In this document: one piece after another, positions 25,742-26,401 of the stretch
How the letters are laid out: the number at the start of each line of letters is the position of its first letter
Position numbering within the stretch: position 1 is the first letter of the stretch
IMG/VR virus record: IMGVR_UViG_2778261065_000031
Span: 1 to 36,521 of that record
Reading direction: 5' to 3' (one strand)
Source: a virus
Lineage: Duplodnaviria; Heunggongvirae; Uroviricota; Caudoviricetes
Length of the DNA: 36,521 nt
Notes under the pieces: generated by a model
Database searches by the model: none
The model's input: only the letters and a program-made list of their open reading frames with translations
What the model was told of the DNA's origin: nothing
Translations under genes and position numbers: made by a program

Positions 25742-26401
25742 ATGAAAATGAAATGGTATGAACTGGCTAGATCCAGAATGAAAGAGCTCGGCATAACTCA
25801 AGAGAAGTTAGCCGAAGAGCTTGGTATGACGCAGGGTGGAATTGGTCACTGGTTGCGCGGATCTCGTCATCCATCTCTTGACGAGATTGGTGTGGTGTTT
25901 AAATACCTTGGTATTGATAACGTCTCATTCAACCACGACGGTACATTTTCACCTGTTGGCGAATACTCATCTGCCCCCGTTAAAAAACAATATGAGTACC
26001 CTGTTTTTTCTCATGTTCAGGCCGGTATGTTCTCGCCTGAGCTTAGAACCTTTACCAAAGGTGATGCGGAGAGATGGGTCAGCACAACCAAAAAAGCCAG
26101 TGATTGTGCGTTTTGGCTTGAAGTTGAAGGTAATTCCATGACCGCGCCAACAGGATCCAAGCCAAGCTTTCCTGACGGGATGTTAATTCTCGTTGACCCT
26201 GAGCAGGCTGTTGAGCCAGGTGATTTCTGCATAGCCAGACTTGGTGGTGACGAGTTTACCTTCAAGAAACTGATCAGGGATAGCGGTCAGGTGTTCCTAC
26301 AACCACTAAACCCGCAATATCCAATGATTCCATGCAATGATAGCTGTTCCGTAGTAGGGAAAGTTATCGCCAGCCAGTGGCCTGAAGAGACATTTAGTTA
26401 A
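25742..26401 (+). CDS. cI: CI repressor (LexA-like S24 autopeptidase), hybrid: non-lambda N-terminal DNA-binding domain with lambda-type C-terminal domain
   Basis: From [28 protein letters not shown] to the end nearly identical to lambda cI; N-terminal HTH differs; start at MKMKWYEL with AAGGG SD. Confidence 0.9.

Follow-up and report, generated by a model that had tools for sequence, protein, structure and literature searches.

The question raised by this locus is which immunity is specified by a repressor that resembles that of phage lambda in one half of its length. The locus is the cI gene in a 36,521-nucleotide (nt) stretch of viral DNA (IMG/VR record IMGVR_UViG_2778261065_000031; "the window" refers to this whole stretch). 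A first-pass annotation had proposed a hybrid repressor in which a new DNA-binding domain, unrelated to that of lambda, is carried on a lambda C-terminal domain. We conclude, with a probability of roughly 0.9, that the gene encodes the functional maintenance repressor of a lambdoid (P22-like, Lederbergvirus-type) phage or prophage of Escherichia coli, and that its immunity is of the VT2-Sakai ("cI2c") type. The sequence architecture, the borders of the mosaic, the identity and conservation of the operators, and prevalence were computed here; statements about binding, cooperativity, activation of the maintenance promoter (PRM) and cleavage draw on lambda biology.

The C-terminal part of the protein proved to be nearly identical to that of lambda cI, as had been proposed. 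Residues 84-219 matched lambda cI from residue 101 to the C-terminus at 133/136 amino acids (aa; 98%), and the corresponding DNA matched at 381/411 nt (92.7%). Searching the PDB with residues 84-218 recovered lambda structures (3bdn, E = 2e-96, and 8gmu, E = 2e-89, by phmmer; 1f39 was also 98% identical in aa), and cI matched structures of LexA and UmuD as well. Pfam assigned residues 11-58 to HTH_3 (PF01381; E = 8e-11) and residues 87-209 to Peptidase_S24 (PF00717; E = 8.9e-29, 100 bits against a cut-off of 23.3). An NCBIfam search of cI returned only sub-threshold matches to LexA and UmuD, and no specific family. The Ala-Gly cleavage site and the catalytic Ser and Lys noted previously are all present: at a constant offset of 17 from the mature lambda numbering, A94-G95, S132 and K175 correspond to lambda A111-G112, S149 and K192. 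The substitutions relative to lambda are C122 (S in lambda), D200 (E) and S219 (G), none of which is known as a classical cooperativity position. At the codon level there were 24 synonymous and 4 non-synonymous differences from lambda in this module, a pattern that indicates purifying selection.

The lambda-like segment has well-defined borders. Identity to lambda DNA rose from about 45% to 93% at about position 25988, and the 5' border could be placed at about 25988-25991 (codons Y-E-Y-P); in 30-nt windows, identity was 0.37-0.60 upstream of this point and 0.83-1.0 downstream. The 3' border coincided exactly with the cI stop codon, past which identity was 33%. Borders this sharp at both ends would suit a recent recombination in this genome between lambda and a heteroimmune phage, giving a new immunity type. 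We give that explanation almost no credence. The C-terminal module is roughly equidistant from lambda and from VT2-Sakai (nt identity: window-lambda, 92.7%; window-VT2-Sakai, 91.0%; lambda-VT2-Sakai, 92.5%). The same junction occurs in VT2-Sakai, in other Stx phages and in 776 genomes, and the architecture recurs, far more deeply diverged, in the epsilon34-like Salmonella phage SPN9CC. The combination has, moreover, already been described (PMC3430580; PMC10742460). A recent lambda recombinant was therefore rejected, the module being far from 100% identical to lambda in nt and the combination widespread.

With pairwise nt identities of 91-93% among the window, VT2-Sakai and lambda, this is an old common module with a star-like relationship among its carriers, rather than the product of a recent exchange with lambda. 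Exchange at the linker has occurred repeatedly, since the same architecture is found at depth in SPN9CC (52% aa identity in the N-terminal domain, 79% in the C-terminal domain) and since phage L c2 joins an N-terminal domain 57% identical to that in the window to a C-terminal domain only 44% identical. Neither partner can be named "the hybrid"; the lambda N-terminal domain may be the odd one on this C-terminal lineage.

The N-terminal half differs greatly from lambda, and the description of it as unrelated was too strong. The N-terminal segment was 44% identical to lambda in nt and 25% in aa. The domain did not align well with the DNA-binding domain of lambda cI (15/60 core residues identical, 25%; linker, 2/23), and the recognition helix reads QGGIGHWLR where lambda has QSGVGALFN. 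BLASTP nevertheless aligned the helix-turn-helix core with lambda (12/29 identities, E = 6e-7), and phmmer matched the domain to lambda N-terminal structures with E-values of 7e-4 to 6e-3. An AlphaFold model of residues 1-70 alone (predicted local distance difference test score, pLDDT, 87) had helices at residues 5-16, 20-27, 31-39 and 46-56. In Foldseek this model superimposed on P22 c2 (template modelling score, TM, 0.68; 1.6 Å), lambda 1lli (TM 0.67; 1.8 Å) and 434 (TM about 0.6). For a domain this short the Foldseek E-values were weak (0.009 or higher), and only TM-scores and root-mean-square deviations were used. A full-length single-sequence AlphaFold model was poor (mean pLDDT 49; C-terminal domain below 50) and was discarded for the C-terminal domain. 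The N-terminal domain is thus a distant homologue of that of lambda, with an Xre/lambda-repressor-like fold and different specificity residues: lambda S45 and A49 are replaced by G32 and H36. The acidic positive-control residues are kept (lambda E34 and D38; E21 and E25 here).

Nor is this DNA-binding domain new. It was 97% identical (58/60) to that of VT2-Sakai-type Stx phages, with an identical helix-turn-helix, and less similar to those of Salmonella phage L c2 (57%; TQGAIGHWLNG), epsilon34/SPN9CC cI (52%) and mEp021 (40%). The identical cI architecture is annotated in the Shiga-toxin phage VT2-Sakai (AP000422), for which the combination was originally reported, and in Stx1-converting and Stx2-II phages. 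Over the whole gene, nt identity was 99.5% to vB_EcoP-683R2, 98.8-99.4% to vB_EcoP-720R6, Dewey, Louie and phi458, and 92.9% to Nil2, 2851, 1717, YYZ-2008, Stx2-II, the Stx1-converting phage and the PA series. The right operator (OR) region together with the N-terminal segment was about 91% identical in nt to VT2-Sakai, cro-proximal DNA included. Of 5426 complete E. coli genomes, 776 (about 1 in 7) carried this module, at 100% identity in, for example, O111:H- 11128. Smith et al. (2012) described the lambda repressor and "CI2c" variants as having a common carboxy terminus, the amino terminus of lambda being unique (PMC3430580). Fattah et al. (2000), as cited in PMC10742460, found the homology between the VT2-Sa and lambda repressors to be high in the C-terminal and low in the N-terminal part, and domain mosaicism of Stx-phage repressors is covered in a review (PMC3202840). 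The cI/Cro/operator module is therefore one already known, of VT2-Sakai type. It is a textbook-clean case of how cI repressors recombine in the linker between their domains, and carries little weight as a discovery.

By reading both control regions we derived a 15-bp consensus, ARTAC-N5-GTAYT. Allowing at most one mismatch, there were 8 matches in the window against 2.1 expected, a number reached in none of 100 shuffles. Four of the eight fall in the two control regions; the other two operators are weaker and were found as repeats. This gives three operators at OR and three in the left operator (OL) region (Table 1), each at the place of one of the "putative operators" that record AP000422 lists for VT2-Sakai. 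The proposed rightward promoter (PR) lies at the position of the "putative major rightward promoter" of AP000422 and AP005153, the proposed PRM matches the "putative maintenance promoter" of the same two records, and the CII site is at the position of the "CII protein binding site" annotated in AP000422.

The sequence differences between the window and VT2-Sakai avoid the operator half-sites. The OR intergenic region contained 21 differences, all of which spared the 30 half-site positions (Fisher p = 0.0008). When the six operators were taken together, the central spacers held 6 of 7 differences (p = 0.005), and 59/60 half-site positions were identical; OR2, for example, has the same half-sites in both phages and a different spacer. 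The "AC" at half-site positions 4-5 was invariant in 36/36 half-sites (12 each from the window, VT2-Sakai and phage L).

Cro fits the same picture. It was identical to the cI N-terminal domain at 22/62 positions (35%; E = 6e-13), including the recognition helices (CTQGAIGHW in Cro, MTQGGIGHW in cI). Because of this level of similarity, the resemblance of the recognition helices reflects homology rather than chance, and the two are paralogues. The expectation in the first-pass annotation that both proteins would read the same operators is borne out to this extent, the six sites being the predicted targets of both. Cro was also 69% identical to phage L Cro, with the same recognition helix. The closest solved structure to Cro was PDB 28tn (2026; "lambda repressor-like protein from Escherichia coli"; E = 4.5e-17, residues 1-69), which is probably a Cro of the same family; the C-terminal motif (V/I)S(L/I)DDVFPP is common to both.

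Taken together, the N-terminal domain, the recognition helix, Cro, and the half-sites and positions of the operators all place the window with the VT2-Sakai group. The features that would place it in the imm-lambda group, a lambda DNA-binding domain with its recognition helix and lambda operators, were both absent. The OR intergenic DNA was 45% identical to lambda; no lambda-type 17-bp operator (TATCACCG...) was found in the OR or OL of the window with up to 3 mismatches, and there were no ARTAC-N5-GTAYT sites in the lambda immunity region. Because the operators are unlike those of lambda in both directions, heteroimmunity with lambda is expected, in agreement with the distinct immunity specificity that had been proposed. 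By the same comparison, the window phage should be homoimmune with VT2-Sakai-type Stx2 phages, which would bear on superinfection and on the spread of Stx phages in host strains that have it.

The opposite possibility is that this cI is functionally cross-immune with lambda, through mutual operator recognition or through poisoning or assistance via the common C-terminal domain. Cross-immunity between lambda and VT2-Sa is attributed to Fattah et al. in a secondary citation (PMC10742460), and in an electrophoretic mobility shift assay lambda cI shifted all VT2-Sa operators (PMC10742460). The apparent dissociation constants in that work were, however, 3.7-6.4 μM on VT2-Sa operators as compared with 0.2-0.35 μM on lambda OL1 and OR1, and so were near non-specific. 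The helix-turn-helix core retains Q-x-G-[IV]-G among its 12/29 identities with lambda, but the specificity positions differ, and Smith et al. infer different DNA binding (PMC3430580). A common C-terminal domain would permit mixed oligomers, and E. coli O157:H7 SS17 has two copies of the C-terminal module, one of them in a true lambda-immunity cI (98% aa); against this stands the absence of each operator type from the immunity region of the other phage. Cross-immunity with lambda therefore seems quite improbable. The 98% identity of the SS17 cI (NZ_CP008805.1, 305815-306528) to lambda cI extends along its full length.

Several observations weigh against a working VT2-Sakai-type switch built on the lambda plan. 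The centre-to-centre spacing of the operators (OR1-OR2, 33 bp; OR2-OR3, 26 bp; OL1-OL2, 25 bp; OL2-OL3, 34 bp) is unlike that of lambda, and lambda-style pairwise cooperativity between OR1 and OR2 can therefore not simply be assumed. OR2 lies upstream of the -35 of PR and does not overlap it. When positions 25674-25717 were read for a better OR2 at the lambda-like distance of about 24 bp from OR1, there was none, and the annotated site was kept. The PRM start site is itself inferred, and translation of cI may begin at either of two ATG codons, 25742 or 25748. Finally, in one VT2-Sakai record (AP000363) a stop codon truncates the homologous cI (Smith et al. 2012, PMC3430580), so that defective members can occur in this group; the cI of the window is intact.

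With regard to spacing, phage L is similar to the window (OR, 34/26 bp, at 817-891; OL, 25/30 bp, at 1629-1698; phage L sequence coordinates). Since this spacing is common to phage L despite its very different C-terminal domain, the geometry travels with the DNA-binding module rather than with the C-terminal domain. With regard to the start of cI, an mRNA from the predicted PRM -10 would begin at or near ATG 25742 and thus be leaderless, by analogy with lambda. The Shine-Dalgarno-like sequence AAGGG at 25736-40 has the right spacing for ATG 25748 only, and the latter is the start annotated in VT2-Sakai and vB_EcoP-683R2. For these reasons, the start codon might differ between transcripts from PRM and those from the promoter for repressor establishment (PRE).

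The truncated VT2-Sakai copy, and the inactivating mutation in the cI of the sequenced epsilon34 genome, raise the possibility that the window cI is a decaying remnant of a cryptic prophage that has lost repressor function. We consider this highly improbable. The window open reading frame (ORF) is intact, with all catalytic residues present, and the ratio of synonymous to non-synonymous differences in the C-terminal module was 31:5 against VT2-Sakai in addition to the 24:4 against lambda, with 5:3 in the N-terminal domain. The operators, PR, the leftward promoter (PL), cro, cII and N are intact, and the window has a full phage gene complement. In addition, the plaque-forming isolates vB_EcoP-683R2, Dewey and phi458 carry a 99% identical gene. 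A pseudogene was rejected on these grounds: the intact ORF, the selection pattern, the intact switch and the plaque-forming relatives.

For a functional repressor of VT2-Sakai type, we propose the following mechanism. The 60-residue helix-turn-helix domain would bind the six 15-bp operators as a dimer; three of these operators separate cro from cI, and the other three are located upstream of N. The -10 elements of PR and PL lie under OR1 and OL1, respectively, and occupancy of these two operators would shut off lytic transcription. Occupancy of OR2 would probably activate PRM, because of the position of its centre relative to the cI start (Table 1) and because acidic E21 and E25 are conserved; occupancy of OR3 would probably repress PRM. 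Cro, reading the same six sites in competition with cI, would favor lytic growth. The lambda-type C-terminal module would provide dimerization and dimer-dimer cooperativity, with formation of tetramers and octamers, and probably looping between OL and OR. On the lambda model, RecA would stimulate self-cleavage at Ala94-Gly95 by the Ser132/Lys175 dyad, leading to SOS induction.

The distribution of the C-terminal module suggests a further consequence. There were 1428 copies of it in 1207 complete E. coli genomes, with up to three per genome, and repressors with one common oligomerization domain thus often co-reside. Because repressors that differ in their DNA-binding domains carry the module, often with 2-3 copies of it per genome, co-resident heteroimmune repressors may form mixed dimers or hetero-oligomers through it, although we regard this as a tentative idea and, on balance, unlikely. 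If it were correct, the stability and induction thresholds of different prophages, Stx phages included, would be coupled, and the reported "cross-immunity" between lambda and VT2-Sa could be explained. The 33/26 and 25/34 bp spacings would then place the lambda C-terminal domain in a non-lambda cooperativity geometry. The operator link to phage L and the co-residence of repressors with the same oligomerization domain suggest cross-talk between prophages.

Table 1. Features of the immunity region, in coordinates of the window.
Feature	Position	Strand	Description
cII activator gene	24977..25273	-	Pfam Phage_CII, E = 5e-32
CII-binding site (predicted)	25251..25264	+	TTGC-N6-TTGT at the PRE -35, inside the 5' end of cII, directed towards cI
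cro	25415..25630	-	71 aa; all-helical, HTH_3 type (Pfam HTH_3, E = 4e-12)
PR promoter	25657..25686	-	-35 TTTGCA (25686..25681), -10 TATTAT (25662..25657); drives cro-cII-O; from consensus scan
OR1	25659..25673		AATACGATATGTACT; exact consensus match; overlaps PR -10
OR2	25692..25706		AATACATCTTGTGCA; weaker right half-site; centre ~42 bp upstream of ATG 25742
PRM promoter (proposed)	25707..25735	+	weak -35 TGGATG (25707-12), -10 AATAAT (25730-35); read from sequence
OR3	25718..25732		AGTACAGAGCGTAAT; overlaps proposed PRM -10
cI repressor gene	25742..26401	+	intact ORF, 219 aa; alternative start ATG 25748
N-terminal DNA-binding domain and linker	25742..25987	+	four helices in residues 5-56, helix-turn-helix at residues 20-39; phage-L-like
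Lambda-type module	25988..26401	+	cleavage-site region and S24 catalytic/oligomerization domain; 92.7% nt, 98% aa identity to lambda cI
Rho-independent terminator	26432..26461 (also placed at 26432-53)	+	ends the cI transcript; 8-bp stem with 5 GC pairs, then T run
OL3	26481..26495		AATACAAAGCGTTAT; found as repeat family
OL2	26515..26529		AGAACATTTTGTATT; abuts PL -35
PL promoter	26528..26556	+	TTGACT, 17-nt spacer, TACTAT; same as annotated VT2-Sakai PL
OL1	26540..26554		AGTACACATCGTACT; perfect palindromic half-sites; overlaps PL -10; inverted-repeat pair with OR1
nutL	26603..26630	+	boxA GCTCTTTAA (26603-11), boxB hairpin (26617-30); matches annotated VT2-Sakai nutL
N antiterminator gene	26747..27019	+	90 aa; Pfam N_peptide, E = 7e-31

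The surrounding genes form a lambdoid immunity region in the orientation opposite to that of the lambda map, outside which the genome in the window is P22-like (Lederbergvirus-like). The region downstream of cI has no rex genes. Between the cI stop codon and OL3 there are 75 bp only (26402-26476), with the terminator inside, whereas in lambda this slot holds rexAB and in VT2-Sakai-type Stx phages it holds about 1.5 kb with small ORFs (H0092, H0093). The immunity region of the window phage is thus minimal and holds no cargo gene between cI and OL3, and the OL and OR sets are only about 0.9 kb apart because the rex genes are missing. The N leader (26590-26750) is predicted to be strongly folded (minimum free energy, -58.4 kcal/mol; z = -5.3 against shuffled controls). 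It includes the boxB hairpin and a long imperfect hairpin at about 26663-26738, which ends just 5' of the Shine-Dalgarno sequence and ATG of N. The latter hairpin brings to mind the RNase III-sensitive structure of the N leader in lambda. Farther out, the early-left operon encodes Ral (restriction alleviation; 27148-27348) and a RecT-type annealase (28757-29668), and the replication module (22480-24805) encodes a lambda-O-like initiator and a DnaB-like helicase of the P22 gene 12 type, rather than lambda P.

Among known systems, the closest is the VT2-Sakai (Sp5) group. Its cI has the same length and the same domain junction, with 97% aa identity in the N-terminal and 96% in the C-terminal domain. 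The group also has six operators with conserved half-sites, and the same layout of PR, PRM, PL and PRE, the same Cro family, N and nutL. It differs from the window in the 7% nt divergence of cI and in the OR intergenic DNA, where identity is only 82% and every change spares the half-sites. The carrier differs too: the window is a P22-like phage with no stx in the window, whereas the VT2-Sakai group belongs to Traversvirus.

The likeness to lambda, apart from the C-terminal module, is one of plan: three operators at the divergent PR and PRM, three more at PL, a cII-dependent PRE, and an N-terminal domain of the same fold class. In contrast to lambda, the window cI is without the long N-terminal arm, the operators have another sequence and spacing, and rexAB is missing. 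Lambda Cro also has another fold, the window Cro being all-helical and paralogous to the repressor.

Phage L has the same operator consensus, ARTAC-N5-GTAYT, again at three sites in OR and three in OL, together with the related Cro and c2 N-terminal domain described above; the C-terminal domain of c2 is not the lambda-type module. In the cI proteins of the Salmonella phages epsilon34, g341c and SPN9CC, the N-terminal domain is L-like and the C-terminal domain lambda-like; over the full length, they are 68% identical to the window cI. For alignments we used SPN9CC in place of epsilon34, whose sequenced cI has a stop codon. SPN9CC is much more diverged from the window than is the VT2-Sakai group, and its operators fit the motif only loosely.

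The same principle of module exchange is seen with different modules in 933W, whose cI consists of an HK022-like N-terminal domain and an H-19B C-terminal domain. The C-terminal domain of 933W is reported to be non-cooperative (PMC3202840), as opposed to the lambda-type cooperative one on the window cI. Laboratory hybrid repressors, such as the lambda-186 hybrid (PDB 7jvt), follow the principle as well. As 933W and the lambda-186 hybrid illustrate, cI-type repressors recombine at the linker, and the domains on either side of it work as exchangeable modules.

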